Origin: Chlorobiota bacterium | GTDB taxonomy: Bacteria > Bacteroidota > Ignavibacteria > Kapaibacteriales > NICIL-2 | Length of the DNA stretch: 64,000 nucleotides | NCBI GenBank assembly: GCA_044224515.1 | Contig: JBGAKH010000002.1 | Span: 355,817-419,816, forward strand | Reading direction: 5' to 3' | In this document: positions 19,331 through 38,702 of the stretch, piece after piece | Layout of the letters: every line of letters starts with the position of its first letter | How positions within the stretch are numbered: the stretch's first letter is position 1 | Notes under the pieces: model-generated | The model's input: the letters and a program-made list of their open reading frames with translations, nothing else | The model's database searches: none | Told to the model about the DNA's origin: nothing | Program-made: the position numbers and the translations under genes

Positions 19331-19470
19331 TGGTGCCGGCTGAACGTCGCAGCTAGCGGACACCGCGTCGGTTGTATTTTTGCTGCTTGTCTTCGCTGCT
19401 AAGTCGCGAAGAGGGGAGCCGAACCACTCCTGCGCTAAACCGTTCGAACATCACCTGTAGGTCTCTATTT

Positions 19471-20682
19471 ATGACGCTGAAACACGTTCGCGAGCAGCGA
19501 CTCTTCGTTGTTGCTCTCTTATTGATTCTCATCGATCAAGTCACCAAAGTGTGGATCAAAGGATTTCACATTTTGGGTTTGGTGCATGAAGGCATGCCAC
19601 TGGAAAGCAGCAGACAGATCTTCGGCGAGTTGCTTCGCTTTAGCTACGTGGAAAACCCCGGGATGGCTTTCGGCGTGTCGTTCGGAAGCGCAAAAATCTT
19701 CCTTAGTCTCTTCTCAATCATAGCCGCCGGAGGTTTGGCGTGGTACCTCCACAAGCTGCGTCACTCGACGATATGGGTGCAACTGGGTGTGATGCTTCTG
19801 CTAGCCGGGGCGGTGGGAAATTTGATTGACCGCGTTTTCTATGGATTGATCTACAACGAAGCACCGTTGTTTTACGGCAAGGTTGTGGATTTTATCGATG
19901 TGGATTGTCCTGATTTTAGTCTCTTCGGACACAGCTATACCCGTTGGTGGGTCTTCAATGTTGCGGATGCCTGCGTGAGCTGTGGTATAACGCTCCTTGT
20001 CTTGTTCAATCACAAGATTCCAACGCTCAAGAGTCTTGACAGTCGCTTCCATGTGTCGAACGATGAAATACACATTGAGGAGTACAATCCCCAATGGGCA
20101 CATGAATTCGCAGAACTTAAGACGGTGCTGGAACGTAGCCTGGGCGGCAAAGCGCAAAGCATAGAGCATGTCGGTAGCACTTCGATTCCCGGTTTGGCTG
20201 CCAAGGCAGTAATGGATGTCGACATCGTCATCGCTGAACAGAGCTCGTTGGATGAGATTCGTACCACCCTTGAAGCATTGGGTTATGTGTATGAGGGCGA
20301 TAAAGGTATTCCCGGACGTGAAGCATTCCGTCAGAGCGACTCCATGGTTCCGCATGGTAGCGGTCACCGATGGATGCGTCAACATATGTACGTCTGTGCC
20401 TCCGACTCTCTAGCCCTGGCTGAACACCGACAGTTCCGTGAGGCGCTTCTGAACTCAAGCGAGCTTCAAGCACAATACGTGGCACTCAAACGTGAATTGG
20501 CAGAGAAGTTCCGATTGGATCGCGAAGCCTATACTAACGGAAAGGCCGACTGGATTCGCTCAGTTCTGTCCGCCGCCACTACCACAACTCCCAGTGTGGA
20601 AAACAGCCCGGAAGAAGCGTCCGACACGGCTGCAACCGACCAAAGTGACGAGTCGGAGAGCGAAGATTTTAAATCAGTGTAA
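19471..20682 (+). CDS. lspA: Fusion protein: lipoprotein signal peptidase II (LspA) fused to a GrpB-family (nucleotidyltransferase-fold) domain with acidic tail
   Basis: N-terminal half: LspA motifs ENPGMAFG, VVDFIDVD, FNVADACVS within four TM helices. C-terminal half: GrpB signature SIEHVGSTSIPGLAAKAVMDVDIV...RQFREAL...YTNGKADWI. The reading frame is continuous, 403 aa from ATG 19471. Confidence 0.7.
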   Translation: MTLKHVREQRLFVVALLLILIDQVTKVWIKGFHILGLVHEGMPLESSRQIFGELLRFSYVENPGMAFGVSFGSAKIFLSLFSIIAAGGLAWYLHKLRHSTIWVQLGVMLLLAGAVGNLIDRVFYGLIYNEAPLFYGKVVDFIDVDCPDFSLFGHSYTRWWVFNVADACVSCGITLLVLFNHKIPTLKSLDSRFHVSNDEIHIEEYNPQWAHEFAELKTVLERSLGGKAQSIEHVGSTSIPGLAAKAVMDVDIVIAEQSSLDEIRTTLEALGYVYEGDKGIPGREAFRQSDSMVPHGSGHRWMRQHMYVCASDSLALAEHRQFREALLNSSELQAQYVALKRELAEKFRLDREAYTNGKADWIRSVLSAATTTTPSVENSPEEASDTAATDQSDESESEDFKSV

Positions 20683-22485: not shown

Positions 22486-24231
22486 ATGAAGAGAATGAGA
22501 CAGCTACTCTTGATAGGGGTGGCTTGTTGTGTTGCCTCGTGCGGAAGCGGACGCATGTGCAGAACGGAGGGTCCACCGGGAAGCATGGGCTCAGTGATCA
22601 ACTCAGCGGCCGATGATATGTCTCCGCACATCGTGCGTGGCGCACTCCTTTTCAGTTCCAATCGCAGCCTCACAGACCTGCAGCAAGAGATGTTGCATAC
22701 CGATCTACCCGAGGCGGTGTTTCGTTCCGAGCGACGAGCAGACGGAAGCTTTGCACCTGCTGACGTCGACGTAGAGTTGGCATTGAATGTCAACAAAGCA
22801 GGAACACCCGCGGTCTTGTTAACGGAAGACTCTCAAGGTCTCATTGTGTTTCCGCGTGCGATAGGCAGTGCAAAAGAAGCCCAGGTTGATTTGTTCGAGA
22901 CCGTGCTGCGAAACGGACAATGGACGCCGGCTGCAGTGATCTCGGAGTTGGAGAGCAAGTATTGGGATTCACAGCCGGCACTTTCGGCTGATGGACAAAT
23001 CCTAGTTTTTTCGTCTGACCGTCCCGGCGGTTTTGGCGGAACGGACTTGTGGTATAGTCTACGCACGGAGGGCGGATGGTCTGCCGCTCGAAATCTTGGC
23101 AAAGAGATCAACAGTGCTGCTGACGAGCAGAGTCCTTTTCTGGACCACAAGTCAGATCTGTACTTTGCATCAAACCGCACACAAGGACCTAATCAGCGGG
23201 GCTTTGAAATCATGCGTGCAACGCATGTTGATCAAACAAGTTGGGCCGGTGTGGAGTACTTACCGTCACCAATCAACTCTGAAGCGGATGATATAAGTCC
23301 GGCGGTGAGTGGCGACACCATCTACTTTGCATCGCGCCGTAGCGGCGGTTGTGGTGGCTACGATTTGTATGCGATGCAATTGTGCGGACCGGTATGGGTA
23401 CGTGGCGAAGTACAGAGTTCTTCAACACTCAGTCGGCGCAGCGGTATCATAACAGTACTCGATTCTGTGGACCGAATAGCTCCGATTCCCGTACCGGAAG
23501 ATGGTCACTTCGAGTTCAAAGTGTGGCCGAACCGTCGCTACATACTTCGTTACCTCAATGAATGTTCGGACTCAACCTTGGAACAAGAGTTTAGTACGCC
23601 GTGTAACGAGTCGAAAGTTGTTGTGCTTCAAACCAAGCTCAAACTACCCGAGCAAAAGCCTGTTTTCAATCTCCACGAATACGACGTCCCTTTCTTCAGC
23701 AAAGGATATTACTTACCGAGCACTACCCAGGAGCTCAACGATCTACGTCTCAAATTTGCTTACAACTTTCTTGGTGTGGAAGAGAGCACCAAATACATTG
23801 TGCAGCCCGGCAAAGAGTACAATGACTATGCACTGAAAGTAGACAGCGCTTTTGACCGCATGCGTGATTTTATTCTCGGTGTACTCGAATATCGGAAGAG
23901 GGGCTGTACCACTAGTCCGGAAGCCTTCAAACTAAAAGTTGAGGCCTTTGCCGATTCCAAAGGATATGCTAGTACGGCGGTGTACAACGGACCCGACATC
24001 TCCGACGACAAACTTGAGCTTCAGGTAAAAGCCGGGACGCCAATGACAAAGGGACTCATGGCAAGCCTCCGCGCTTACTATGTAATTAAAGTACTTGAGC
24101 TACGTTTGTCATCGAACCCCCTCTACCAAGAGTACAAGAACCGTCTCAAATGGCGCATAGCACCCCGCGAAGATGAAAAGTCCGCCGACCCCGAAAGTCT
24201 GATACGAATGGTAGATGTTGGAGTGGAGTAG
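22486..24231 (+). CDS. Lipoprotein with four TolB-like PD40 beta-propeller repeats and a degenerate OmpA-like C-terminal domain
   Basis: Lipobox LLLIGVACCVASCG. Repeats DDMSPHIV..LLFSSNR, DSQPALSADGQILVFSSDRPGGFGGTDLWYS, DEQSPFL..LYFASNR, DDISPAVSGDTIYFASRRSGGCGGYDLYAM. C-terminal ...EAFADSKGY...LRAYYVIKVL resembles OmpA but lacks the canonical D/R residues. Confidence 0.55.
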   Translation: MKRMRQLLLIGVACCVASCGSGRMCRTEGPPGSMGSVINSAADDMSPHIVRGALLFSSNRSLTDLQQEMLHTDLPEAVFRSERRADGSFAPADVDVELALNVNKAGTPAVLLTEDSQGLIVFPRAIGSAKEAQVDLFETVLRNGQWTPAAVISELESKYWDSQPALSADGQILVFSSDRPGGFGGTDLWYSLRTEGGWSAARNLGKEINSAADEQSPFLDHKSDLYFASNRTQGPNQRGFEIMRATHVDQTSWAGVEYLPSPINSEADDISPAVSGDTIYFASRRSGGCGGYDLYAMQLCGPVWVRGEVQSSSTLSRRSGIITVLDSVDRIAPIPVPEDGHFEFKVWPNRRYILRYLNECSDSTLEQEFSTPCNESKVVVLQTKLKLPEQKPVFNLHEYDVPFFSKGYYLPSTTQELNDLRLKFAYNFLGVEESTKYIVQPGKEYNDYALKVDSAFDRMRDFILGVLEYRKRGCTTSPEAFKLKVEAFADSKGYASTAVYNGPDISDDKLELQVKAGTPMTKGLMASLRAYYVIKVLELRLSSNPLYQEYKNRLKWRIAPREDEKSADPESLIRMVDVGVE

Positions 24232-24398: not shown

Positions 24399-25298
24399 AT
24401 GAAGTCTCAAAAGCAAGGTTCTGCACTAGTTAATCTCGTTGGCTGGTATCGCGATAACTCTCCACTGGGTTTTGGTAAAGCAAAGCTCAGCAAGTTTGCT
24501 TTAAAAAGCCTCGGCATAGCCGAAGTTGAGGCACAATCAAACGACGGCTGTACTTTTCTCCTGCGAATGCCGGATGATGCCTCGTGGTTCAGCATCTACT
24601 TTGATGGAAATTTCGAGACCGGCACTTTGGAGCTGATGAAGAAGGTTGTCAAGTCCGATGACGTGATTCTTGACATTGGCGCAAACCTCGGGTGGTATAC
24701 AGTGCATCTTGCCAAGTTGCTTCCTATCAGGCACTGTCACGCATTTGAGCCGGTACCGAATATCTATGACAAACTGAAAAAGCATTGTGAAATCAATGGA
24801 GTAAGTTCCAAGGTCACCTTGAATCAATGTGCGCTTGGAGATCAAAACGGAACGATTGAATTACATACCTTTCCGGATTTACCACATGGACACTCGTCAA
24901 TCTCTACTCTTGGTAAGACGAATTACGTGACGTCCCATGCCCCGATGTTCAAACTCGACGATTTCATTGCCTCAAACAATCTCGAAAAGATTGATTTTAT
25001 TAAAATGGATGTCGAGGGTGCCGAAGCGCTGGTACTAAGTGGAGCACTTGAGCTATTAAAACGTAAAGATCCTCCGGTGTGGGTCATTGAATTGAACATC
25101 GAGACAGCAGCAAGTTTTGGACATCGCCCTGCGGACCTATTGAATACACTGTTGTCTCATAATGATTATGACTTGTACAAAGTAGATCGTGGTTGGGGAT
25201 CTACGAGAAGAATGAAATCGGTGGACGATTATGAAAATGGTGACAATGCTGTCTGTGTCCCAAAAACAAAGAACGATCGCATGCAGTGGCTAAGGTAA
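24399..25298 (+). CDS. FkbM-family SAM-dependent methyltransferase
   Basis: ILDIGANLGWYT (SAM motif I), AFEPVPNIYDKL, IDFIKMDVEGAE are hallmarks of Methyltransf_21/FkbM. Confidence 0.75.
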   Translation: MKSQKQGSALVNLVGWYRDNSPLGFGKAKLSKFALKSLGIAEVEAQSNDGCTFLLRMPDDASWFSIYFDGNFETGTLELMKKVVKSDDVILDIGANLGWYTVHLAKLLPIRHCHAFEPVPNIYDKLKKHCEINGVSSKVTLNQCALGDQNGTIELHTFPDLPHGHSSISTLGKTNYVTSHAPMFKLDDFIASNNLEKIDFIKMDVEGAEALVLSGALELLKRKDPPVWVIELNIETAASFGHRPADLLNTLLSHNDYDLYKVDRGWGSTRRMKSVDDYENGDNAVCVPKTKNDRMQWLR

Positions 25299-25572
25299 AG
25301 CTGAAACTGACCAATCTTGAACCAACCATTCAGCACATTGTCATTTGCTGATGTCACTGTAACTTTTCTTGTCAATAGTTGCTCTGAAGAACGGCTTCAT
25401 CGAAGTATCGATGAGGCTGTTTCTATGTTGGCTAGTTATGCTGAGTGTATTTAATGGGATAATTCTTTTGAAAACGTCAAAATGTCCGTACCGTGGAGCA
25501 TGGTATTTGAAGCTTCCTTCTGTATCTTCGTCACAGGCGGACATTTTACTATTTACCACTATTGGAGTCACC

Positions 25573-26352
25573 ATGAAAACTCTTCTTGCCGCACTTTTTT
25601 GCTCACTGCTGCTTATTAGCAATTCTGGTTGCAGAAAGTTTGATAATGTCTCGGATCCTTCCGACACTACAAGCTGTAATACGAATTACTCAATGTTATT
25701 TAACGGACGTACTTCCTATATGGAGGTACCAAGCACCCCTGAATTGAATCTCTGTGAAGGAAGTTATACCATTGAAACTTGGGCTTTCTTCAATGAGTAT
25801 TACGGTGGATGGCAGGTACTACTTGCTAAGGATAACATGGACAGCAATACAGAGTGGCTTTTAACGGCAGATGGTCCGACACATCGCTTTCGTTTTCAAA
25901 CCAGGGATTTTTCAACCGTGCTTTACAGTACAACACCGGTGATGTCAGGAAGATGGTATCATTTGGCAGCCGTTCAAGACTTTGCCAACAATACTGTGAA
26001 ACTGTACGTCGATGGCGTTTTGGAATGCGAAAGGAACTTGGTCGGTAGAATAGTCACTACAAATTACCCGATTCGATTTGGCACTCGCATTAATGATATC
26101 ACTGCAGGCAGTCCGTGGTATGTTGTCGATGGGCAAATGGATGAAGTGCGAATTTGGAATGTTGCTCGCACTGCAGAGCAAATCAATTCCAACAAAAACA
26201 AGACATTAAAAGGAAACGAATCCGGTTTGGTAGCGTACTGGAGCTTCGACGAAGGTAAAGGTACAAAAGCTGTTGACCATACATCGCACGGACATGATGC
26301 GGCTATGTTTGCATCGCCATTCTTTATGATCACAAATTGTCCTGTGAAATAA
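25573..26352 (+). CDS. Lipoprotein with LamG-like (concanavalin A-like lectin/glucanase) jelly-roll domain
   Basis: Lipobox LLLISNSGC. The pattern WYHLAAVQDFANNTVKLYVDGVL...DEVRIWNVARTAEQI is the LamG_3 signature. Paralogous to the C-terminal domain of the next gene. Confidence 0.6.
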   Translation: MKTLLAALFCSLLLISNSGCRKFDNVSDPSDTTSCNTNYSMLFNGRTSYMEVPSTPELNLCEGSYTIETWAFFNEYYGGWQVLLAKDNMDSNTEWLLTADGPTHRFRFQTRDFSTVLYSTTPVMSGRWYHLAAVQDFANNTVKLYVDGVLECERNLVGRIVTTNYPIRFGTRINDITAGSPWYVVDGQMDEVRIWNVARTAEQINSNKNKTLKGNESGLVAYWSFDEGKGTKAVDHTSHGHDAAMFASPFFMITNCPVK

Positions 26353-26459
26353 CAATCAGATATTGTTGAGCTACGACCCATGCTGACCATGAGGTCAGCA
26401 TGGGTCATTCTCATCACTGCGGCACAATGTTAAAATACATTTCCAACATTCACACACCT

Positions 26460-27773
26460 ATGAACTTACGGTCATTTCTACGTACCTGGACATCAGTTCT
26501 AGCCATCACAATAATTGGACCGTTGTTCTGGTCATGTAGTGGTGACAGCGTTACTGCACCAACCACAGGAACTATTTCAGGTGTGGTGAACATTGACACT
26601 GGCGGAGTTGCCGCGGGAGCTCTTGTGTATACAGTACCCCCTTCTGCATCCGTGTTGTCAGACTCTCTTGGCAGATATACAATTGGTGACGTTTCAGTTG
26701 GAACGGTCACAGTCTATGCGTTGAAAATTGGTTGTGACACAGCGATGGTATCGGTTAACGTCCTATCGTCGAAAGTAACGACAACGGACATTTTACTTCA
26801 TGTGTCAAAGCAAAACAACGCGCCCAATCAAGCCAGATTGGTTGCCCCGGATTCAATTGCAACGCATGTATATAAAGACAAAATTTTGCTTAAGTGGTCG
26901 TGTTCAGATCCCGATAACGATGCGTTGAACTATGATGTTTACATGGGTACCGGCTCAAATCCCGGCGATTTGAAGTTAGTGGCTAAGGGCTTGACTACAT
27001 CGGAGTATAGCGCAACATTACAACAAGGATATGTTGAATACCAATGGCGCGTAGTTGCTCGAGATCAACTTGATAAGGCCAGTACAAGTCCAACGTGGAG
27101 GTTTGTGTCAAACTCTGAATGGGCACTTCACTTCGACGGCCTATCACAGTACGCGCAAGTCCCTTCCTCAACAGCACTGAATTTGTCGTCACAAGACTAC
27201 ACGATTGAGATGTGGGTCTACATCGACTCATTTGACCCCGAGTGGCAAGTTATTATGACGAAGGATGCGACGAATAGCAACACAGATTATCTCGTGCAAG
27301 CAAATCACGACGGAAGGATTTTGTTCCAGTCAAGAAACTTGCAGAACATGGTCTACTCTAAGAATTATTTTAAGGCTGCCACTTGGTATCACCTTGCATT
27401 TCAGCAAAGTCTTGATGAGAACAAGTTAAGAATATTTGTTAACGGTTCTTTAGTAACGGAAGCTGCGCTTGCGGGATCCGCGGTGACGACTAGTTCGCCT
27501 CTCTTGATCGGAGCTAGAATAAATTCTGCTTCAGGTGGATTACCAACCGCCTTATTCGCCGGTAAGATTGATGACCTGCGAATATTTAACACAGTGCGCA
27601 GCGAAGCGCAGATAAACGCCGATATGACGACTCCCTTAAGCGGTTCAGAAGTTGGTCTTATTGCAGGGTTTAACTTTAATGAAGGACAAGGCAACACATC
27701 ACAAGATGTTAGCGCTAACCTAAACGTCCTTACTTTGCGTAACAATCCCACTTGGGTGGTTGGTCATAAATAA
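26460..27773 (+). CDS. Secreted protein: CarboxypepD_reg-like domain, FN3-like domain, LamG-like domain
   Basis: Signal peptide. GTISGVVNIDTGGVAAGALVYTV (carboxypeptidase regulatory-like beta-sandwich). A PKD/FN3-like middle region. C-terminal WYHLAFQQSLDENKLRIFVNGSL...DDLRIFNTVRSEAQI LamG signature. Confidence 0.6.
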   Translation: MNLRSFLRTWTSVLAITIIGPLFWSCSGDSVTAPTTGTISGVVNIDTGGVAAGALVYTVPPSASVLSDSLGRYTIGDVSVGTVTVYALKIGCDTAMVSVNVLSSKVTTTDILLHVSKQNNAPNQARLVAPDSIATHVYKDKILLKWSCSDPDNDALNYDVYMGTGSNPGDLKLVAKGLTTSEYSATLQQGYVEYQWRVVARDQLDKASTSPTWRFVSNSEWALHFDGLSQYAQVPSSTALNLSSQDYTIEMWVYIDSFDPEWQVIMTKDATNSNTDYLVQANHDGRILFQSRNLQNMVYSKNYFKAATWYHLAFQQSLDENKLRIFVNGSLVTEAALAGSAVTTSSPLLIGARINSASGGLPTALFAGKIDDLRIFNTVRSEAQINADMTTPLSGSEVGLIAGFNFNEGQGNTSQDVSANLNVLTLRNNPTWVVGHK

Positions 27774-27867
27774 GGCCAGTCTTCATACGGAACAAATTGT
27801 AGGTTCTGCAAAGTCCGGCTGTTGACGGTTCCGCCTTAAGGCTTCTTCTATTAAGACAGGAGAGTGC

Positions 27868-30800
27868 ATGCGTCCCCTCTACGTATTGCTTCTTGTAAGC
27901 ACACTACTGAGTGCTGCTATCGAAGCTCAGAACTACAAGTGGAACTATTTCAACAAACTCAATTACCCGCGACGAAACTACCCTGCTCAAAATCATTGTG
28001 CCGTATTCGACGATTGCAAAGTACTTGTCGCGGGAGGCTATGTTGGAGGTAGTTCCTCAACATTCGGGCAGCCGACGAAAAAGTGTGAGATCATCAATGT
28101 TTGTTGCTCCAATGTGACTCTAACCGGGGATATGGTCATACCTCGGGCCGAGCACATCCTCTTGACAACACCGGATTCAAACGTAATTGCTATTTCCGGT
28201 ATCACGCAAGTGACTAACGAGAACAATTTCACTGGCACGCACACTACGACGGTGGAACTCTACACTCGGGCTACAGGTACTTGGTCAACCATAGGTAACA
28301 TAAACACAGCAAGAAGGCAGGGTCAAGGTGTTTTTATCAGTAGTCACGAAGTCTTCATTATCGGTGGACGCATTGAGGATCTCTCTACGCTCGGCTCTGC
28401 TGAGATCTTCGATCTAAACACAGGCACAAGCACCAATGTAGCCAATGCGCCTATGCCGATAAACATGCACGTTGTCGGTATTGCAAGTAATGGAGATGTT
28501 ATCATTGCTGCCGGACGAAATGGCGGCACCGATGCCACGCGAACACCTAACATTTATCGATACAACCGTTCAACCAACACCTACACTCAAGTTGGTACGT
28601 TGCCCTCAGCAGTTCGTTCTCTTGCCCTACGAAAAGTCTTCGACGGACGTCTGCTAATGAGCGGAGGATTGATTAACGAATCCAGTCCGCAGATTTCCAG
28701 TTATATCGAAATAGAAAACAGCGGTAGCTACTCTCAACTGGGAAGTTCGTTGCAACCACGATGGGGTCATGGAATTGGACAAATCAATAATGATTCCTGT
28801 ATAGTCTTTGGCGGTGGTGGAACGACACTTCTTAATACGCGAGCAGAGTGTGATTGGATCAATGTGTCTACAAATCAAGTCAGTGCGGGACCGTCGCTTC
28901 CCAAAGGTCTTGCAAGCTTCAACTATGCATCTGTACCACTGAGTAAGAACTCAAGCGGACAAGTCCTTGCATCCGCAGTGCTAGTGATAGGTGGTGTGAG
29001 TGGTGCCAGCGAAATGCAAAAGGAAACCCCACGCGACACAATCTTCATCCTCCGCCGCTGCAGCGTTCCCGACTCCATTAAAAGTCAGACTGTGACAAGC
29101 GAATGTGCAACTGTACGACTATATATCGACTCCTTGTATCGCTGTTTGACTCCTACCCTTATCCGTTGGTCGTTTGGTGATAGCACCTACACGCAGACAT
29201 CTCCATGGTCCACCACACATACCTATCCGCGCAAAGGGACGTATGTGGTGAAGGCTACGTTGGTGTATGCGAATTGCGCAGACTCAGTGGTTCTGCAACA
29301 GAATGTAACGATTACAACGGGTGCAAACATTGTGTCATCACCTCGCACGATTGTAAAATGTGCAAAGGACTCCGTTGTGCAGTTACACGCTAGTGGTGGA
29401 GTACGCTATCTCTGGTCGCCGGGCAGCGGTTTAAGTGATTCTACGAGTGCGAATCCTATTGCACGACCTACAAAGGACACGAAATACATAGTCTACGGCT
29501 GGTCTGCGGATAGCTGTCGAGGTGTTGACTCTGTGTTCGTTCGAGTAAGCTCCGGACGTGCCAATGCCGGACCGGACAAGTCGATGTGCGGTCAGGGCGA
29601 CTCCGTTGTCCTCGTAGCTTTGGCTGATACCAAGATTCGTTCCGTGAAATGGACACCGAAGACCGGATTGGATTGCGACACCTGCCTTGTTACAAACGCC
29701 AAACCAACGGTCACTACCAATTATGTCGTCACTCTCGTTGACACCAACGGATGTGTTCTCTACGATACTGTAAAGGTGAGCATTAGAGCCGGATCTGCAG
29801 CTCGCATTGCCGGTGGACCCATTATGAATATCTGCTCGAGCTCAGACTCTGCTTTGCTCTCGCTGACAACGAAGGGTGGAGTGCGAAGCGTACGCTGGAC
29901 TCCAAATGTTGGGTTGTCATGTGATAGCTGTTTTAGCACCAAAGCGCTACCGAAGACCGCGGTGACTTATAAAGTGTTGATCACAGACTCAAGTGGCTGT
30001 ATAACGGTCGACAGCATACAGGTTACTGTCAATAAAACATCAAATCAGATTCAATCAGGTGCGCCCCAGTACATATGCTTCAAAGGCGACTCAGCCGTAC
30101 TTTCTGTTTCCGGAAAAGTGAAAGGTATTCTTTGGTCTCCTTCCACCGAAGTCTCGTGTTCTACCTGCACATCTACTCGCGTCAAACCTCCGACCACTCG
30201 CTTCTTTAGGTACAATGCCGTTGACAGTGCGGGTTGTTACTTCAGCGATTCGATTAAAGTTACGGTGTTGCCAAAGTCAACAGTCGATATTGCTCCGGAT
30301 ACGAGCGTGTGTGGCTCAACAGCTATTCTGCTCAACGTGTATGGACAATATCAGAACATTAACTGGACGCCTACCGGCGGTTTAAGCTGCACGAACTGCC
30401 CAACCGTCCTGGTAAACCCAACACCGGGTAAAACCATTACCTATTATGTTACTTCGCACAACGGAAATAGTGCTGACTGTGATAATCGTGACTCTATTAC
30501 CGTTCGCTTTGCACGGGGTATCGATGGACAGCTTAAGGATCAAGTAATCTGTCCGGGTGATTCTCTTAGCGTCACGCTGCGTCCTTTTGGTGGACACATC
30601 CTCTGGAATAGCTCACCTGATATTTCATGTGATACCTGCAGAAGCATCACCATAAAACCGACTAAAAACGGAAAGTATATTGTCACGGGAGACTCACTGG
30701 GATGCATATCCCGTGATACCTTCCTTGTTACACTTGCTCCAACTACACTCTCGGTTCCTAAGACTCTCAGTGCATGCGCCGGACAACGAGTCATGATGGG

Positions 30801-32739
30801 GGCAACAACGAATTCGACGATTGTCACGTGGACTCCGCCCGATGATTTGTCTTGCACTGATTGTCCAAATCCTCAAATCACGGCATCCGTTTCACGCACC
30901 TACTACGTCACCGCCGGACGTGGAAGCTGTCAAGTACGCGACTCGGTAGTTCTCACCGTAAAGCCGGCACCAAGTTTTAGTGCTTTCCCTCTCGACACGA
31001 CCATTTGTGGTCACGATCCGGTTATTGTGCACCTTACTGTGCAACCAAGCGGAACTACAGTGAGCTGGGATCCCAACTCAGATTTACAGTGTTACAATTG
31101 TGCGGATAATGTCATACGACCCACCACAGACGATGCACAATACACGGTTCATCTACGTAGTCCATCGGGTTGTGACACAAGCTTGGTCGTGCGCATCCAT
31201 CGCGTCAGTCTTCCCAAGCCGAACATCGTGGCTTCACGTCGAAAAGTATGTCAGGGCGACACACTCAGTTTGCAGCTCAGTCCGGTTAGTGGAGCTACCT
31301 ATAGCTGGAGCTCAAACAAAGGATCCGCAGCCCACATCGGTTGCGACAGCTGCAGTACCACAGTAGTCCAACCTCAGGACTCCACTCGATATTATGTCCG
31401 CATCCGCTTGAATGGCTGCGAGACCCTTGACAGTATTGACATTGCGGTCGAAGCTCGCGCTCAAGTTCAATTAAGTGCCGATACGACGGTGTGTGCCGGA
31501 ACCCTTGTGCAAATGCATGTGACGGGCGGAGATGTCGTGGAATGGGGCACTCATCCGGATATCAGCTGTACAAGCTGTCGCGATCAAGTCGTCACGCCTC
31601 AACACAGTACAACCTACACCCTGAGGGTGGGAATGGGAGTGAGTCCGGATTGTTGGCGAGACACCTCAATTACCATAACAACCATCCCTTGTAACGTCAA
31701 AGTTGACATTCAATCTACCGGTGTTGCACCCTTCCTTGCATGCGACAGCGCTCGAAGTCTTGTGAGTATCTTGAATGATGGCGACTTGACTTTGCGCATC
31801 GACAGTGTGATTGTCGCGCCAAGCAGTAGTGCATCGGTATCAAAAGCTGATCTGCAAGCACTTCAGGCGCAGCTTCCCACCACACTAGCGGCACACGGAG
31901 GAACGATTGCGTTTACTCTGAACCTCATACCCCTTCAATCCGGTGCGGCATCAGCGGATATTCTGGTGTACTGCAGTGACTCTGTCAGAATAGTTCACCT
32001 AGCCTTCACGAGTTACAATCGAATCGTCGACTTGAGCCTGCCGCCTACGTACAGTCTGCGTTCGGATACCACGATTCATCTGCCGGTTACAGCACGAAGT
32101 GTTGCTTGGTCTGAACTGCGACTGCGAGACAGTATTGTGGTTACAGTGCATATCGACTCATCAGCCCTTCTCTATCAAGATGTAGCTAAAGGCGCTGCGC
32201 TAAACGCAGATTGGCGTGTATCCTTCGATACACTAGCCAGTAGCTCTGCTAATCAAGTCTTCACCCTTCGCGGAAGTTCCGTTCTAAGCAGTGACGGAGA
32301 GTGGTTTGTACCTGAATACAAGACGTTGCTTCCAGTGCATTCGCCGGTTAATGCACAACTAAGCGCGCGATTTCCTTCTCTGCGTATACCCTGTGCAGAC
32401 CAAAACAACAGTGGTAGTGTGATGACCTTCTCTGCATGCGCCTTTAGTTTGCGACATGTCACGACCACTGCCGCATCCTTTGGACTTATCAATGTACATC
32501 CTAACCCTGTACGGAGTGGAAGTGTGCACCTGCGTTATGGTATCGCCGTCGAAGCTGCGGCCAATCTCGTAGTGTATAACACTAGTGGTCAGCTTGTTGC
32601 TGTGGTGTCTTCGGGTCTTCACTCGCCCGGAGAGTATGACGTCGACCTTTCAACACGTGGTCTTTCCAATGGAGAGTACCTCATACGTCTTGAAGTGTTC
32701 GGTCAGGTGTACTCAACGCCGCTCGTCATAGCGAACTGA
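27868..32739 (+). CDS. Giant T9SS-secreted adhesin-like protein: N-terminal Kelch/galactose-oxidase-type beta-propeller, about 13 tandem Ig-like Cys-pair domains, C-terminal Por secretion sorting domain
   Basis: Signal peptide MRPLYVLLLVSTLLSAAIEAQ with an AGGAG-like RBS upstream. Kelch-like blades (AVFDDCKVLVAGGY, VFIIGGR, AAGRNGG, LMSGGL, IVFGGGG). About 85-aa repeats, each with W-[ST]-P-x(3)-[LV]-[SD]-C-x-[TS]-C and a second Cys (for example WTPKTGLDCDTCLVTNAKPTVTTNYVVTLVDTNGCVLYDTVKV). C-terminal ...INVHPNPVRSGSVHLRYG...YLIRLEVFGQVYSTPLVIAN is a T9SS CTD. Confidence 0.8.
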   Translation: MRPLYVLLLVSTLLSAAIEAQNYKWNYFNKLNYPRRNYPAQNHCAVFDDCKVLVAGGYVGGSSSTFGQPTKKCEIINVCCSNVTLTGDMVIPRAEHILLTTPDSNVIAISGITQVTNENNFTGTHTTTVELYTRATGTWSTIGNINTARRQGQGVFISSHEVFIIGGRIEDLSTLGSAEIFDLNTGTSTNVANAPMPINMHVVGIASNGDVIIAAGRNGGTDATRTPNIYRYNRSTNTYTQVGTLPSAVRSLALRKVFDGRLLMSGGLINESSPQISSYIEIENSGSYSQLGSSLQPRWGHGIGQINNDSCIVFGGGGTTLLNTRAECDWINVSTNQVSAGPSLPKGLASFNYASVPLSKNSSGQVLASAVLVIGGVSGASEMQKETPRDTIFILRRCSVPDSIKSQTVTSECATVRLYIDSLYRCLTPTLIRWSFGDSTYTQTSPWSTTHTYPRKGTYVVKATLVYANCADSVVLQQNVTITTGANIVSSPRTIVKCAKDSVVQLHASGGVRYLWSPGSGLSDSTSANPIARPTKDTKYIVYGWSADSCRGVDSVFVRVSSGRANAGPDKSMCGQGDSVVLVALADTKIRSVKWTPKTGLDCDTCLVTNAKPTVTTNYVVTLVDTNGCVLYDTVKVSIRAGSAARIAGGPIMNICSSSDSALLSLTTKGGVRSVRWTPNVGLSCDSCFSTKALPKTAVTYKVLITDSSGCITVDSIQVTVNKTSNQIQSGAPQYICFKGDSAVLSVSGKVKGILWSPSTEVSCSTCTSTRVKPPTTRFFRYNAVDSAGCYFSDSIKVTVLPKSTVDIAPDTSVCGSTAILLNVYGQYQNINWTPTGGLSCTNCPTVLVNPTPGKTITYYVTSHNGNSADCDNRDSITVRFARGIDGQLKDQVICPGDSLSVTLRPFGGHILWNSSPDISCDTCRSITIKPTKNGKYIVTGDSLGCISRDTFLVTLAPTTLSVPKTLSACAGQRVMMGATTNSTIVTWTPPDDLSCTDCPNPQITASVSRTYYVTAGRGSCQVRDSVVLTVKPAPSFSAFPLDTTICGHDPVIVHLTVQPSGTTVSWDPNSDLQCYNCADNVIRPTTDDAQYTVHLRSPSGCDTSLVVRIHRVSLPKPNIVASRRKVCQGDTLSLQLSPVSGATYSWSSNKGSAAHIGCDSCSTTVVQPQDSTRYYVRIRLNGCETLDSIDIAVEARAQVQLSADTTVCAGTLVQMHVTGGDVVEWGTHPDISCTSCRDQVVTPQHSTTYTLRVGMGVSPDCWRDTSITITTIPCNVKVDIQSTGVAPFLACDSARSLVSILNDGDLTLRIDSVIVAPSSSASVSKADLQALQAQLPTTLAAHGGTIAFTLNLIPLQSGAASADILVYCSDSVRIVHLAFTSYNRIVDLSLPPTYSLRSDTTIHLPVTARSVAWSELRLRDSIVVTVHIDSSALLYQDVAKGAALNADWRVSFDTLASSSANQVFTLRGSSVLSSDGEWFVPEYKTLLPVHSPVNAQLSARFPSLRIPCADQNNSGSVMTFSACAFSLRHVTTTAASFGLINVHPNPVRSGSVHLRYGIAVEAAANLVVYNTSGQLVAVVSSGLHSPGEYDVDLSTRGLSNGEYLIRLEVFGQVYSTPLVIAN

Positions 32740-32762: not shown

Positions 32763-34181
32763 TTACACTTTAGAAGTGTCGACGGTGCTCGTTTTCGGGA
32801 GACGGCTCTTGTACTTGTTCCAACACAACAATTGCATCATGTTGAAGATGTCGACAGAACAATGATGCAAGGAGTTATAGTAGTCGCGATCCGCGCTTCG
32901 AAGGGCAGTGTGTTGCTCTACGGCTTTGAGAAGAGTGCGGAGATGTCGAAACTCGGAACGCCACAGCTCTGCATCGCGAATATCTTTCTTGGTAGCAAAG
33001 TATCGTAGCGACCTGGCAATGAGCTCAAGGGCATAGAAACTGTCACCACTGAGAGCAAAGGATACACATTCTAAAAATCGGAGCTCGGCCTCAACGCCTC
33101 TGTACACTTTGACCGACATAGCAAGTCCGGCGCTGATGAACTTTAGGGCCATGTCCGTATTACCCGTGTAGAGATAATACATGGAAAAGTCGGTAGCATC
33201 CATAGGCCGCATCAAGTCTTTCCCGAGTATGGCCATAGTTCCGAAGCGCATCTTTAGAATCTGCTCGGCCTTGCGCAGCTTGCCGGACATCAAGAGAATG
33301 CGGAAGTAGTACAGATTCAACTGTCCATTGCGACGATAAATCTCAGGATTTTCCTCCCACACTGCCTCGCATTGTTGCAATGCTTTGTCCAATCCGTCCA
33401 AATGAAGATAGGTCTCCGCAAGTGATCCACGTACAACATAGCGCGCCTCAGGATAGATGGTAGGGTTTGCAATGAGGATATCCAAAGCGCGTTCCCACCA
33501 CAGCACGACGTTTTCAAGTCGGGAGGTGGCAGTGTAAAGCTGCGCCAAGGCTCGACACAGAACGATTTGAGACTCGGGCCACTTCTTGGATTTGATTGTT
33601 CTCCACGTCTCCAACAGCTCCTTTTCGTAGGGAGCCAAAATCTCATCGCGCTCGCCCTTGATGTAGTGAATCACGATCTCTCGGATCATGGTTCGAATGC
33701 GCACAAGGTAGGGTGCCTCAGGACTCTTAGCCACGCTGCGGTAACGCTTACATATTTGAGTCCATATTTTCTCCTGAAAGATTCGTGCTTCAAACAACAA
33801 ATAGCTGTTAACTGCCGTATGATACAACTGCTCCATATCGTCTGCTGCAGCATCGCGACGGTATTGTCGATCCCGCTTTGCCAGCTCGTGCACATAGTTC
33901 TCATGCAATCCACTCTTTGCCAAGATGTGAAAGATGCTCTCGCGTTGGAGCTCGGAGATGTACTCATACGACCGAGATAAGATCACACTCGCGCATTTGT
34001 CAAAGTGCGCAATGGTCATACTAAGCTCAGACGGTAGCTCGCGTGCATCACGTAAGCGGTCGGCAGCATCGATGTGTGACACTAACACCCTCTGCTCAGT
34101 ACTACTGAGCTTCACGGACTCAGGCAGACGTCGACGTACATCGGGTGAAAGGGAGGTCAGAAATTCGCTCAAATAACTCAT
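32763..34181 (-). CDS. Putative HTH-containing helical-repeat regulator; paralogue of 1656..3002
   Basis: Same size and N-terminal pattern as the 1656..3002 product (LSPDVRRRLPESVKLSSTEQRVLVSHI). All-helical. Start at ATG 34181; the track begins at a TTG at 34235. Confidence 0.4.
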   Translation of the reverse strand: MSYLSEFLTSLSPDVRRRLPESVKLSSTEQRVLVSHIDAADRLRDARELPSELSMTIAHFDKCASVILSRSYEYISELQRESIFHILAKSGLHENYVHELAKRDRQYRRDAAADDMEQLYHTAVNSYLLFEARIFQEKIWTQICKRYRSVAKSPEAPYLVRIRTMIREIVIHYIKGERDEILAPYEKELLETWRTIKSKKWPESQIVLCRALAQLYTATSRLENVVLWWERALDILIANPTIYPEARYVVRGSLAETYLHLDGLDKALQQCEAVWEENPEIYRRNGQLNLYYFRILLMSGKLRKAEQILKMRFGTMAILGKDLMRPMDATDFSMYYLYTGNTDMALKFISAGLAMSVKVYRGVEAELRFLECVSFALSGDSFYALELIARSLRYFATKKDIRDAELWRSEFRHLRTLLKAVEQHTALRSADRDYYNSLHHCSVDIFNMMQLLCWNKYKSRLPKTSTVDTSKV

Positions 34182-34449
34182 CGTGTGGGCAAACGGTTTG
34201 TCGACGGAAGTCTCAACTGCATACAGCGAGCCCAACGATGTTTCGCGGCATCGTCAACGGCCCGGTAAGAATAGAAGCAAAATCGGATTTTTTTCGCCTT
34301 GTCACTGCTCGAATTTCGCCCGCCGTCCGCAACGCTCTTCAAGGTCGGCAATAAATGAAGGTTTGAAAGAGCATCCGATGCATCTGCCTCGACACCCCGG
34401 GGCGCGCATCATTCGGACACCACACCATTCTTCAGAGGAGAGGACCCAC

Positions 34450-35439
34450 ATGTCGTATTTAGTTTCAGAGACCACCACTCTACGAAGGAGAAGCTTGTTG
34501 CTCTTCGTGAAACTGAGCAGTGTCGTGGTATTATGCGTGCTTTTCAATTCCGCCCTGCTCAGAGCGCAAGTGCACTATCGAATCATAGACAACGAACCAA
34601 ACGCGTGGAACTGGATGGCATCGGCCTCGATCCACACCCAAAACTTTAACTCTGCCAATCTTCGGCTAACTGCCGGCTTCAAACCGGTGGACTGGCTTGT
34701 TCTTAGCGCACGACACACCTTGCCTTTGTATGCGCACGCCTTTTCAGGCGATGCCAACGCGGCGTCTTGCTCGTTCAGTGATGCAAGCGCTGTGCTGCGA
34801 CTGGGTTCAGCGTGGACGGAGAAAGAGCGGGTGACGGTTAGCTCCTCAAGCTCAGAGTACGGTGGAGTTCGCACACACAGCTCTTCATATTTCGAGGCAG
34901 ACATGAAAGTGTACAGCTACGTTGGGTTACGTGGTGGTTTGTGTTTACAGAACATGGTACAACCCATCAACGCGGCGCGCTTCGACATCGCAAAAAGCGA
35001 TGAAACTGCTCGCATCGTGGACACAAACTGGACCGGAGAAACACGCGTGACCGCAACAGGGCTTCACGCCGGAATCGAGTGGGGAAGAGACTCGCATGCC
35101 AACGTCGAGTTTGAAGCTGATGGCGATCGAGGTCGTGCTCAGGTCTGCTACAACGCACGATACTATCTGGACTTTCTCTACATGCCGGATCTGAACTACC
35201 ATCATTTCAGCTCCGCAGGAAGTGACTATGCGGTGCAAACAAAGGCAGATCGATCATACACCCAGCTCGGTGGACGCTTTGGTTTCGAACAGAATTTCCG
35301 TTGGTGGACGTGGGGTGCTGAACTCGGCTTGCAACGTCGCTTCGGTGACGGAGAAAGCACGAAACTTTCCGAAAACGGCTACGGCTACCTGAACTTCTTC
35401 TTCGGCTTTTCCATAGCTAACTGGGCATCCGCTGAATAA
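34450..35439 (+). CDS. Secreted hypothetical protein (possible outer-membrane protein)
   Basis: Signal peptide MSYLVSETTTLRRRSLLLFVKLSSVVVLCVLFNSALLRAQ. Beta-rich with aromatic-rich C-terminal segment NFFFGFSIANW. The track extends the N-terminus to 34183. Confidence 0.4.
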   Translation: MSYLVSETTTLRRRSLLLFVKLSSVVVLCVLFNSALLRAQVHYRIIDNEPNAWNWMASASIHTQNFNSANLRLTAGFKPVDWLVLSARHTLPLYAHAFSGDANAASCSFSDASAVLRLGSAWTEKERVTVSSSSSEYGGVRTHSSSYFEADMKVYSYVGLRGGLCLQNMVQPINAARFDIAKSDETARIVDTNWTGETRVTATGLHAGIEWGRDSHANVEFEADGDRGRAQVCYNARYYLDFLYMPDLNYHHFSSAGSDYAVQTKADRSYTQLGGRFGFEQNFRWWTWGAELGLQRRFGDGESTKLSENGYGYLNFFFGFSIANWASAE

Positions 35440-35804
35440 ACACATAGCGAGAAGCGCAACTGGAAATGCAAGGATGACCGGTCAAGTAGAACAATGTGTA
35501 CCGTGTCTTTAGTCCAAACTACTGAGATGACGAAAAACGAAAGCGCTTCTGTTCGTGTAATACGCTTCCGAGCGCAGGAAGTATCTCATGATAGCTCGTG
35601 ACGGCTCGAGAAAACTCAAAAAAGCTTACAACATTCACAACAACTCACGCTCGCTCAAGCCAGCGTACAACATCTCGCATGGCACGTTCAGAACACTCAT
35701 TGAGCAGTACCATGCCTTCGTTGCGGGGACCAATACTTGCCGGTTCACGACAACGATCGACTTACAACACCTTTACACACTACCACAACCAAAAAAGAAT
35801 CACC

Positions 35805-36398
35805 ATGACGACAACAACAAAGCAAGCAAGCAAGACACATGGAAGAGGTGTAAGCAGAGTCTTTCACCTGGCCAAGGTCGGACTGAGTATGAGCAGCCTT
35901 TGCGTTGCTTTGTTCTTAGCCGGCTGTAGTCTTCCGGAAATCGAGAACGCAGTGGCTGCCTCACAGTTGAGCACTGTCGACTCAACAATCAGTGGTGCTG
36001 CAGGCAGCTGCGAATGGAATGTGGACGGAAAGAGTTTTACATCCAAAGGACTCTACCGTAGCTCCACCAAAACCTTGATCATGCATGCCGATGCTGACAA
36101 CATTCTTGAATTCACCTTCTCTACAGCGACGCCAAGCTTGAAGCAAATGAGTATACCATTGGTTCCGGTGGCAATCTATCCCTATAATGCGAGCGTGTTG
36201 TTGAAGAGGCGCAATACGGATGGAAGCGGTTACCTCAGTACAGGAGTCAACGTCATTGGCTCTTTGGACATCATGGCGCTTACCGCGAATCAGCTCAGTG
36301 CGCGTATCAGTTTTGATGCCAGTGCCGCAGCATACGGCACCGGTGCACTATCAACGATACACGTTAGCGGAAGCGTGACAGATGTTCCGATTCGCTAG
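35805..36398 (+). CDS. Hypothetical lipoprotein
   Basis: Lipobox LFLAGCSLPE after an H-region. No recognisable domain. Confidence 0.45.
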   Translation: MTTTTKQASKTHGRGVSRVFHLAKVGLSMSSLCVALFLAGCSLPEIENAVAASQLSTVDSTISGAAGSCEWNVDGKSFTSKGLYRSSTKTLIMHADADNILEFTFSTATPSLKQMSIPLVPVAIYPYNASVLLKRRNTDGSGYLSTGVNVIGSLDIMALTANQLSARISFDASAAAYGTGALSTIHVSGSVTDVPIR

Positions 36399-36766
36399 TC
36401 CCTATGCAATGACGTGACCTTAGGCGGTCTTCCACATCGTGGCACGGCGAGTCAACACAGTCTTTCATCAGCATACGCAGAGCACCGGCCCTCGTGCAGC
36501 GGGCGTCGCCCGATGCATAGACAAATAACTTCTTGAGATCCTAGAAGACAAAACGCTCCCTCACGCGCGGCAAAATATTTTTTAGCTCGGGCGCTCTGCA
36601 GCACTGATAGTTCCTCGTGACGGCTTATTTTCGCATCGGCTACTTTATGGGATTGCCGCAGCATGAGATCAGCCCTTGATCTGTGGGCTGCGGCAGTAGT
36701 CAACGAGAGCAGCATCTCGTATCCTGTTCCACCGCCGTCTCAACACAACAAACTCCCGGGAGCACT

Positions 36767-37897
36767 ATGCTCTACTATTTAGCGTTGTGGCTCGAAAAGA
36801 ACTTTCAGCCACCGGGCATGGGCGTATTTCGTTATGTCACCTTTCGCTCTGCCGGCGCAGCGATTACTGCATTGCTTATCAGCTTTGTTGTGGGTCCGCG
36901 CATCATTCGTGCATTGAAGCGACACCAAATGGGTGAGCAAGAGAAGCGCGAATTGGCAGGTGTGGGCACGCACAATCTCAAAGCCGGAACACCGACAATG
37001 GGAGGTCTCATTGTGCTAACCGCTCTCCTGGTGCCGACACTCCTGTGGGCTAATATTACCAATGCCTATGTGATTTTGATCGTCCTAGTGACGGCCTGGC
37101 TAGGAATGGTTGGTTTCTTGGACGACTATTTAAAAGTAGTGCGCAAGTTTCCTAAAGGATTGATCGGACGCTATAAGATAGTAGGACAAGTCGGTATTGG
37201 ATTGATTCTTGGCGGCACGATCTACTTCTATCCTGAGCTCTTCGATGATAGCATGCGTGCCGTGCACACCTTCACCACAGTTCCTTTTTCCAAGCACATC
37301 AATTTCGATTGGGGTTGGACCTACATTCCCGTGGTCATATTCGTCTTGACCGCCACCTCGAATGCCGTAAACCTCACGGATGGTTTGGACGGGCTGGCAA
37401 TGGGTACTGTCGGAATTGCAGCGCTCACCTTGGCTCTTATTGCGTACTTCAGCGGCAATGCGGTCTTTGCCAACTACCTGAACATCATGCACCTGAGAGG
37501 GGCAGATGAGCTCACAGTGTTTTGTGCCGCCCTTACCGGTGCAGCTATGGGATTCTTGTGGTTTAACAGCTTTCCCGCGCAAGTATTCATGGGCGACACC
37601 GGCTCGCTCGCCTTGGGTGGTGCAATTGGAGCATTGGGAATTTTGATAAAGAAAGAGTTTCTACTTCCCATTGTTGGAGGGATCTTCTTTGCTGAGACCA
37701 TTTCGGTTATCATCCAGGTAAGCTACTTTCGGTACACCAAGAAGAAGTACGGTGAAGGACGTCGCATTTTCAAGATAGCGCCCCTACACCACCATTTTGA
37801 GAAATCGGGTTGGCATGAATCGAAGATTGTTACGCGGTTTTATATCATAGGAATCATGCTTGCCATTATTACCATGGCAACCTTTAAGGTTCGGTAG
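36767..37897 (+). CDS. mraY: Phospho-N-acetylmuramoyl-pentapeptide transferase
   Basis: MraY-specific motifs KAGTPTMGG, FLDDYLKVVRKFPKGL, NAVNLTDGLDGLA, FMGDTGSLALGG. Ten or so TM segments. Confidence 0.9.
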   Translation: MLYYLALWLEKNFQPPGMGVFRYVTFRSAGAAITALLISFVVGPRIIRALKRHQMGEQEKRELAGVGTHNLKAGTPTMGGLIVLTALLVPTLLWANITNAYVILIVLVTAWLGMVGFLDDYLKVVRKFPKGLIGRYKIVGQVGIGLILGGTIYFYPELFDDSMRAVHTFTTVPFSKHINFDWGWTYIPVVIFVLTATSNAVNLTDGLDGLAMGTVGIAALTLALIAYFSGNAVFANYLNIMHLRGADELTVFCAALTGAAMGFLWFNSFPAQVFMGDTGSLALGGAIGALGILIKKEFLLPIVGGIFFAETISVIIQVSYFRYTKKKYGEGRRIFKIAPLHHHFEKSGWHESKIVTRFYIIGIMLAIITMATFKVR

Positions 37898-37960
37898 TGT
37901 TATTGTCAAAGAGCGGGGTCAGCTAGGCGGTTCCGTCTCCAAGGCCAAATCATCATTTTT

Positions 37961-38332: not shown

Positions 38333-38702
38333 TGAGAAGTCACGGACCATTCTTGGAGATGTTTTTATCATGCGTCTGCTTCGCAGCCGCCGGAAAAAAG
38401 GCAGTGGTCTAGACAAAAAAGCTTGATTTTGAGAAGAAAAAGGACATCGACAAGACTTTGAGAGCATGAGCTCGGTCGGGGTCGGCGTCATCAGATAAAA
38501 AAACGCCATTTTATACACCGGACTCTTTACCTCCTCTACAGTGTGGTCGATAATCCGGGAAATGGTGAGAAGTGTCGAAGACGTGTGCTTCGTCTGCAAT
38601 AAGGCAGGCGCGCTCTGCGTCGCTAGGTCGGTACGCCGATGATAGTTCATTGGCACGCTGCCCTGCCACAGCAGCATTGAACATTGTAATGAAGGTGAAA
38701 AC

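Follow-up and report, generated by a model that had tools for sequence, protein, structure and literature searches.

Gene content and domain architecture of the locus

We analyzed a 64,000-nucleotide stretch of a Chlorobiota bacterium contig (JBGAKH010000002.1, here called the window) and focused on a plus-strand gene whose 1623-aa product we refer to as the giant protein, as well as on the three genes that precede it. The giant protein carries a Kelch β-propeller head on a stalk of immunoglobulin (Ig)-like domains and ends in a predicted type IX secretion system (T9SS) sorting domain. Comparison with related loci reveals that this head is exchanged together with an upstream gene, which in the window encodes an FkbM-family methyltransferase. 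A preliminary description, prepared from the letters of the sequence, had placed four plus-strand genes in this region, and we recover all four at the same positions, as open reading frames (ORFs) spanning 24399-25298, 25369-26352, 26400-27773, and 27868-32739. With the likely start codons of the two LamG genes, the intergenic gaps are 274, 107, and 94 nt. The features of the four genes are as follows.

24399..25298, + strand: FkbM-family S-adenosylmethionine (SAM) methyltransferase, 299 aa (TIGR01444, Methyltransf_21), the partner of the type I Kelch head
25573..26352, + strand: LamG1, putative lipoprotein, 259 aa, one Laminin_G_3 domain (ORF opens at 25369, likely ATG at 25573)
26460..27773, + strand: LamG2, putative lipoprotein, 437 aa, with a CarboxypepD_reg-like domain, a middle domain of ~105 aa, and a Laminin_G_3 domain
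27868..27927, + strand: giant protein, Sec signal peptide, aa 1-20 (MRPLYVLLLVSTLLSAAIEA, then Q, read from the translation)
27928..29067, + strand: giant protein, type I Kelch β-propeller head, aa 21-400, seven Kelch-like units (Kelch_4, Kelch_1, Kelch_6, and Kelch_3 above their cutoffs)
29068..29337, + strand: giant protein, PKD-like domain, aa 401-490 (PKD 26.5 bits, cutoff 23.5), mostly inside the exchanged cassette
29338..31689, + strand: giant protein, ten tandem Ig_7-like repeats, aa 491-1274 (repeat profile, Cys pattern, and AlphaFold2 model)
31690..32493, + strand: giant protein, two β-sandwich modules without a Pfam family, aa 1275-1542 (AlphaFold2 and Foldseek), the second cohesin-like
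32494..32739, + strand: giant protein, T9SS type A C-terminal sorting domain, aa 1543-1623 (TIGR04183), plus stop codon

The product of the first gene matches both TIGR01444 (106.7 bits, cutoff 37.7) and Methyltransf_21 (PF05050; 70.5 bits, cutoff 22.7, E = 2e-19), confirming the FkbM-type methyltransferase that the preliminary description had proposed. It is also weakly similar to the V_cholerae_RfbT model (20.5 bits, cutoff 27.9, E = 3e-4). The protein lacks a signal peptide, and a sequence search at E ≤ 1e-3 returned no solved relative.

The giant gene has an AGGAG ribosome-binding site 5′ of its ATG, and its product begins with a signal peptide that we judged by eye from the translation rather than with a predictor. 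The head that follows shows seven GG-containing units at a spacing of 50-60 aa, and residues 1-402 match the Kelch models Kelch_4 (64.4 bits), Kelch_1 (57.6), Kelch_6 (48.2), and Kelch_3 (43.3). The head had been described as a galactose-oxidase-like Kelch propeller. The propeller assignment holds, but the likeness to galactose oxidase derives from a Pfam name only, in that several of the matching Kelch models are titled "galactose oxidase, central domain." This name, along with the label N-acetylneuraminate mutarotase that the Joint Genome Institute (JGI) gives to distant Kelch relatives, would favor a secreted galactose-oxidase-like or mutarotase-like Kelch enzyme mounted on a spacer. We consider such an enzyme extremely unlikely: the best PDB sequence matches to the head are KLHL/KEAP1-type and designed Kelch propellers, with no galactose oxidase chain among the best 60 of 77 matches; the NANM model reaches only 20.4 bits against a cutoff of 45; and the residues that are invariant among orthologous heads are the standard structural positions of Kelch propellers.

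At the other end of the protein, residues 1275-1542 were modeled by AlphaFold2 as two β-sandwiches with a predicted local distance difference test score (pLDDT) of 72. Foldseek relates this region to cohesins (TM-score normalized to target 0.55-0.64) and to SPD-2/ASH-type Ig domains, and one orthologue matches Pfam Cohesin with E = 1e-4. The C-terminal sorting domain anticipated from the sequence is recognized by TIGR04183, although marginally (24.4 bits versus a cutoff of 23). Por_Secre_tail (PF18962) stays under its cutoff of 27 with 21.2 bits, yet it is recorded for orthologues P0002-P0005.

The head and its upstream gene are exchanged as a cassette

We identified 10 full-length orthologues of the giant protein, with 42-54% identity, lengths of 1538-1632 aa, and 9-10 repeats each. 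A scan of one genome per species returned only five related loci, all in metagenome-assembled genomes labeled Chlorobiota, Bacteroidota, or Candidatus Kapaibacterium, and the family is lineage-restricted. We compared about 15 related loci (numbered L001 and onward). The DNA of L013 and L004 is 97.5% identical on both flanks, but there is no similarity from the end of a Lactamase_B gene to ~codon 470 of the giant gene; within this segment, L013 carries an FkbM gene on the plus strand and L004 a class I methyltransferase gene on the minus strand. L015 has the same flanks, at 90-97% identity, around a third, unrelated segment that contains a gene for a 513-aa polytopic membrane protein and a third head. 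The right-hand recombination boundaries in these relatives fall at ~codons 470 and 498. Similarly, orthologues P0006, P0008, and P0009 have stalks that are 93-98% identical and heads that are 45-55% identical. Across all orthologues, the heads sort into three types that cut across the stalk groupings, each with its own upstream gene.

Head type I, upstream FkbM gene: the window, L013/L007, L014, L016, and L018-L020
Head type II, upstream class I methyltransferase gene (Methyltransf_23/11 type): L001, L002/L003, L006, and L004
Head type III, upstream gene for the 513-aa membrane protein: L015, L011, the P0007 JGI contig, and probably the P0011 contig

The pairing of head type with upstream gene has no exceptions in the loci examined and is kept in at least three flanking contexts. 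The two partners also diverge in parallel, FkbM proteins being 62-71% identical where their heads are 60-70% identical, and class I methyltransferases 62-72% identical where their heads are 57-61% identical. The head and the upstream enzyme gene thus constitute a polymorphic cassette that is exchanged as a unit by homologous recombination in conserved flanks, and this polymorphism is observed within a population.

The three upstream genes are distinct. FkbM orthologues, at 62-71% identity, lie upstream of the type I giant genes of L013, L014, L016, and L018-L020, and the linkage of FkbM to the giant gene appears genuine; a more distant relative, at 48% identity, is found in an unrelated neighborhood that lacks a giant gene. 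The class I methyltransferase has no BLAST similarity to the FkbM protein of the window and is absent from the 64-kb window. The 513-aa protein comprises several hydrophobic segments followed by a soluble domain. It resembles a glycosyltransferase, given this hydrophobic profile and one weak NCBIfam match to a Leptospira putative glycosyltransferase family (28 bits, cutoff 200); a search for homologues returned five clusters only, none informatively named.

L003 and L005 both come from a single sequencing run, SRR28480385, in which one contig encodes the exact giant protein of the window (type I) and another encodes orthologue P0004 (type II, with the class I methyltransferase). One sample can therefore contain organisms that differ in cassette type.

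The persistence of the pairing and the nature of all three partner genes suggest that enzyme and head are functionally tied. The main rival account is that the enzyme gene merely hitchhikes: the head would be hypervariable under diversifying selection, for example from phages, predators, or changing substrates, and the enzyme would be swapped by position only while serving an unrelated role, for example in general lipopolysaccharide (LPS), O-glycan, or small-molecule methylation. The boundaries of the exchanged segment are compatible with this account, as they coincide precisely with the end of the conserved Lactamase_B gene on one side and lie in the conserved beginning of the stalk on the other, as are the 48%-identical FkbM relative located away from any giant gene and the fact that the three partner genes come from unrelated families and differ in orientation. 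Nevertheless, the pairing survives deep divergence, with type I heads only 54-71% identical to one another, and it survives rearrangement, the two LamG genes being located between FkbM and the head in the window and ahead of FkbM in L014. Its retention in several flanking contexts likewise argues against mere position, and all three partners belong to glycan- or small-molecule-modifying classes, which a random set of neighboring genes would not. We therefore view hitchhiking as possible but somewhat unlikely.

The stalk is built from CxxC-bearing Ig_7-like repeats

The preliminary description had counted about 13 repeats of ~85 aa. Our analysis yields 10, each of 73-82 aa (~78 aa), and a total of 13 is reached only if the PKD-like domain and the two C-terminal β-sandwiches are included. 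The W-x-P...CxxC signature that had been noted is present in nine of the 10 repeats, but instead of a single third cysteine, there are two further ones, making four per repeat: C1, near the start and after the first strand, and C4, before the last strand. These two are invariant in all 10 repeats, and repeat 1 has C1 and C4 only. Pairs of repeats share on average 26% amino acid and 39% nucleotide identity, with a codon-aligned maximum of 47% at the nucleotide level, indicating that the repeats are old. Near-identity at the DNA level, a mark of recent expansion that the preliminary description had proposed to look for, is not seen in these alignments; Tandem Repeats Finder reported nothing, and no long direct DNA repeats were found. 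Recent repeat expansion was rejected on these grounds.

Examined as a whole, the giant protein matches Pfam Ig_7 (PF19081, "Ig-like domain CHU_C associated") with 30.7 bits (gathering score 27.3). Of the individual repeats, repeat 9 scores 32.8 bits, repeats 5 and 3 remain below the cutoff (21.0 and 13.6 bits), and the other seven have no match. A profile built from the 10 repeats recovers the abundant Ig_7 repeats of CHU_C "gliding motility-associated" proteins, which establishes the homology of all 10, and at E ≤ 1e-3, it retrieves 76,904 representative proteins. By contrast, the Pfam SprB repeat model matches neither the whole protein (E ≤ 0.01) nor single repeats (E ≤ 10). The repeats share with Ig_7 the fold, the consensus C-x-G-D-S...W-x-P...T-T-Y-x-V...G-C...D-S-V-x-V, and C1/C4; they differ in that a typical Ig_7 repeat reads LSxxT where these read LSCxTC. 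The repeats are a divergent, CxxC-bearing subtype of Ig_7. Of the 149 best-ranked representatives that we checked, 27 contain three or more four-Cys repeats, the highest number being 32 among the 35 repeats of a single protein, and these proteins bear either type A or type B sorting domains; the CHU_C Ig_7 proteins have the type B (CHU_C) domain, whereas the giant protein has type A. Cys-pair repeats on this scale, which had been called unusual, thus belong to a known family and recur widely. The subtype is common yet poorly caught by Pfam Ig_7, with only one of the 10 repeats here above the cutoff, and a dedicated CxxC Ig_7 model would better annotate many large Bacteroidota surface proteins.

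An AlphaFold2 model of one repeat adopts an Ig-like sandwich (pLDDT 86), with the CxxC motif at residues 37-40 in a loop between strands 24-30 and 42-45. Foldseek searches with this model return generic Ig and PKD folds, among which fragments of GhpA rank highest in identity, at 22-28%. GhpA, from Aureispira sp. CCB-QB1, is a heptameric T9SS grappling-hook adhesin with 52 Ig-like repeats, disulfides between neighboring Ig-like domains (Cys2988-Cys3140 being named), and putative O-glycans on all Ig-like domains (10.1101/2024.01.29.577165); its structures are available as PDB entries 9flp, 9fls, 9flv, 9flx, and 9fly. Single-repeat phmmer searches of the PDB did not recover GhpA, but the repeat profile matches 9flp_A with E = 1.6e-112 and 27 passing stretches, and C1 and C4 are conserved. 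The two proteins differ in size and head, as GhpA combines its 52 repeats with a loop-like N-terminal hook module of ~1400 aa and the giant protein combines only 10 with a Kelch propeller. The PorP/PorE-like anchor genes of GhpA lie downstream, whereas here, a PD40-repeat protein with partial similarity to PorE is encoded upstream.

Conserved cysteines and sequons in the stalk

We next considered how the four cysteines might pair. GhpA Cys2988 corresponds to profile position 8 (C1) and Cys3140 to ~position 60 (C4) of the next domain, and by this homology, C1 of one repeat would be stapled to C4 of the following repeat by a disulfide bond. Both C1 and C4 are present in all 104 repeats of the orthologues. 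Among 164 generic repeats, C1 is present in 160 and C4 in 164, so rarely lost that co-loss does not distinguish pairing within a domain from pairing with the neighboring domain. The CxxC pair behaves differently: 91 of the 104 orthologous repeats have all four cysteines, 13 have only C1 and C4, and none has half a pair. In 3789 repeats from other proteins, both cysteines of the pair are present in 401 and a single one in eight. A mutual information scan of the same, previous, and next repeat coupled the CxxC state with nearby columns only and revealed no spatial partner.

Most likely, the two cysteines of the CxxC motif form a local disulfide that closes a short loop connecting strands C and D, which would stiffen the repeat. 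It could instead be a functional site, either a metal site, for example one shared with C1/C4 at the domain junction, or a redox-active motif that exchanges disulfides along the stalk. Four invariant cysteines per repeat, the position of the motif in a loop of the modeled repeat, the joint rather than single gain and loss of the pair, and weak, chance-level matches of the zinc-ribbon model S27e over the motif could all be read in this way. However, thousands of repeats without CxxC still conserve C1 and C4, so these two cysteines do not need it, distant columns are uncoupled from the motif, and T9SS cargo folds in an oxidizing periplasm; we regard a functional site as very unlikely. A haem c site (CxxCH) was rejected outright, as a histidine follows none of the nine motifs.

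The stalk is also rich in the Bacteroidota O-glycosylation sequon D-[ST]-[AILVMT], with 19 observed in the repeats versus 5.3 expected (none of 2000 shuffles reached 19) and 30 observed versus 8.1 expected in the whole giant protein. The enriched sequons sit in GDS and DSV motifs that are kept throughout the Ig_7 family; for this reason, the enrichment is only suggestive and may be structural. It nonetheless raises the idea that the linked enzyme tailors an O-glycan of the adhesin's own stalk, by methylation or extension on a lipid carrier before transfer, and thereby alters its coat. The putative O-glycans on every Ig-like domain of GhpA and the weak similarity of FkbM to RfbT, the Vibrio cholerae O-antigen methylase, would fit such a role along with the sequon counts. 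Set against the possible structural origin of the sequons, the presence of only a single sequon in the head, and the fact that the enzyme covaries with the head and not with the glycan-rich stalk, we find own-stalk modification quite unlikely.

A model for the giant protein as a fibrillar adhesin

The best explanation overall, and one that we hold to be probable, is that the giant protein is a T9SS fibrillar adhesin with a stapled stalk and an exchanged head-enzyme cassette, the enzyme of which tailors a glycan relevant to the head. The adhesin interpretation, already favored in the preliminary description, is supported by the Sec signal peptide, the Kelch propeller, the Ig stalk homologous to that of GhpA, and the T9SS sorting domain. 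In this model, the chain would be exported by Sec, transported by the T9SS, and anchored to the outer membrane through its type A sorting domain. The two β-sandwiches, the 10 Ig_7-like domains, and the PKD-like domain would together form a stalk of ~13 modules that holds the N-terminal Kelch propeller off the cell as a ligand-binding tip. The linked methyltransferase or glycosyltransferase-like enzyme would then tailor a glycan that matters for binding by the head.

Several observations weigh against this model. None of the 10 other ORFs scanned in the window encodes T9SS machinery, and the margin of the TIGR04183 match is small (24.4 versus 23). The putative staple from C1 to C4 is patterned on one published GhpA bond in an approximate register. 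The Kelch head is not enriched in the O-glycosylation sequon, with one observed and 0.9 expected. Linkage alone could account for the pairing of enzyme and head, because the heads have diverged too far for recombination within them and every exchange between conserved flanks must bring the upstream gene with it. Finally, because neither FkbM nor the class I methyltransferase has a signal peptide, these enzymes cannot act directly on a secreted head.

A functional precedent is RemA, a mobile T9SS-secreted surface lectin and adhesin of Flavobacterium johnsoniae with a carbohydrate-binding module on Ig-like repeats. RemA binds a galactose-containing polysaccharide on neighboring cells, a polymer made by the same species, and causes cell-cell aggregation (Shrivastava et al. 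2012, as cited in PMC8481357). It thus offers a precedent for a head that recognizes a self-made glycan. Its lectin module is other than a Kelch propeller, its Ig domains are only marginally similar to the repeats described here (8gl6_D, E = 4.8), and a swappable head-plus-enzyme cassette is not described for it in the literature consulted.

Variation within a species is familiar from two further systems. TraA of myxobacteria shows allelic variation in its surface-exposed recognition domain within one species, and RfbT underlies the Ogawa/Inaba O-antigen methylation switch of Vibrio cholerae, in which a glycan-methylating enzyme varies within the species. In these systems, either the domain or the enzyme varies, whereas here, both vary jointly as a cassette. 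This joint variation invites a more specific proposal, namely polymorphic, "greenbeard"-like self-recognition, in which each cassette would pair a Kelch lectin head with an enzyme (FkbM methylase, class I methylase, or GT-C-like glycosyltransferase) that generates the corresponding epitope on the surface glycan of the cell itself. Adhesion would occur only to kin with the same cassette, and the three alleles in a near-clonal population would persist under frequency-dependent selection. The epitope could be carried or co-recognized by the LamG lipoproteins. In the opposite scenario, the enzyme might hide the glycan of its own cell and so prevent self-binding. We offer self-recognition tentatively and consider it unlikely.

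Taken alone, the giant protein is one more T9SS fibrillar adhesin of known parts. The newer element is the comparative result, a three-allele cassette in which an adhesin tip and an enzyme of a glycan-modifying type are swapped between ~97% identical strains. If the coupling is functional, the locus would be a compact, sequence-readable case of a receptor and a ligand modifier evolving jointly in an uncultured lineage (Kapaibacteria), and it would provide a direct handle on the targets of bacterial surface Kelch propellers. If the coupling is only linkage, the locus remains a clear example of heads being swapped as modules on a conserved stalk.

LamG proteins and locus conservation

The preliminary description had recognized the two middle genes as tandem LamG paralogues, and this is borne out: both products match Laminin_G_3 (PF13385; cutoff 27.6), LamG1 with 87.6 bits (E = 1e-24) and LamG2 with 95.0 bits (E = 6.5e-27), and they are 37% identical to each other over 203 aa (E = 4e-47). 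The N terminus of LamG1, read off the sequence as MKTLLAALFCSLLLISNSGC, begins with MKTLL and has a cysteine after a hydrophobic stretch; LamG2 likely starts at 26460 (MNLRS...), in an ORF that opens at 26400. As the hydrophobic stretch ends in a cysteine, as it does in the copies of relatives, both proteins are probably lipoproteins. LamG2 had been assigned a CarboxypepD_reg-FN3-LamG architecture. Its LamG domain is secure and its CarboxypepD_reg match falls just short of the cutoff (31.7 versus 32.3 bits), but the FN3 assignment is unsupported since the middle domain has no Pfam match even at E ≤ 1. LamG1 shares 45-48% identity with the LamG proteins of L014 and 30-34% with their counterparts in L001, L002, and L006, and LamG2 aligns over its full length with LamG433 of L002 at 33% identity.

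The arrangement of these genes varies among relatives. L001, L002, and L006 share the backbone of the window (PolX-LspA/GrpB-TauE-PD40) and carry one to three LamG genes plus the class I methyltransferase gene on the minus strand, so that they point away from the giant gene. The two LamG genes of L014 precede FkbM, and all three share the direction of the giant gene; at the L004, L013, L015, and L011 loci, LamG genes are absent. The co-directional block that had been described is thus real in the window and in L014, but it is not conserved as a unit, and in several relatives, co-transcription of the LamG and giant genes is impossible because they lie on opposite strands. The LamG lipoproteins appear to be frequent, non-obligatory neighbors of the giant gene and are possibly accessory surface lectins. 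Glycan binding by the LamG proteins or by the Kelch head would be plausible.

In L006 (6120-8812), an insertion sequence element (DDE_Tnp_1 transposase, 6835-8013) appears to split a CarboxypepD_reg-LamG gene into parts of 264 and 202 aa, suggesting that LamG genes are dispensable. In L018, the giant gene 3′ of FkbM (3317-7935) is split in the gene calls into two ORFs (995 and 530 aa) that jointly align with a full-length orthologue, which indicates a frameshift, a stop codon, or an assembly error; this copy may be a pseudogene. A second presence/absence difference beside the locus concerns a Bac_export_2 (FlhB-like) gene, which lies between the giant gene and a Complex1_30kDa gene in L004 (12286-13374) and L015 (8729-9817) and is missing from the otherwise 97% identical L013 (8984-9119).

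Flanking genes and base composition

Housekeeping genes flank the block on both sides, with PolX, an LspA-GrpB fusion, TauE, and the PD40 protein upstream and a TPR protein, an MraY-like GT4 enzyme, and ClpB downstream. The GC content at third codon positions (GC3) is 0.41-0.46 in FkbM, LamG1, and LamG2, 0.47 in the giant gene, and 0.53-0.58 in the housekeeping neighbors; the lower GC3 of the first three genes does not prove import. Along the giant gene, the GC3 profile shows no boundary between head and stalk in the genome of the window. A terminator scan of the locus gave nothing above shuffled expectation, and the companion promoter scan does not model Bacteroidota-type promoters.

The PD40-repeat protein (22486-24231, + strand) is encoded directly 5′ of the block and is kept at 51-60% identity in L001 and L002. 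Its similarity to PorE (112 bits, cutoff 600) and to CHU_0125 OmpA-like proteins is confined to their β-propeller part. Because GhpA is adjoined by PorE/PorP-like anchor genes, the PD40 protein might help with anchoring. Further upstream, a single ORF at 19372-20682 (+ strand) joins signal peptidase II (LspA, Peptidase_A8) to a GrpB domain, and the same fusion is called in L001, L002, and L006. Two ORFs downstream of the block, at 34183-35439 and 35598-36398, match no family and are perhaps not genes at all. The ClpB and MraY-like GT4 genes (within 32763-41222) are on the plus strand in the window and on the minus strand in L001, L002, and L006, indicating an inversion. Near the start of the window, an ORF at 3319-5577 (+ strand) encodes a bacteriocin-type ABC exporter with an N-terminal peptidase domain, whose highest-scoring NCBIfam model, the NHLP-family bacteriocin export transporter, gives 494 bits and so falls short of its equivalog cutoff of 853.

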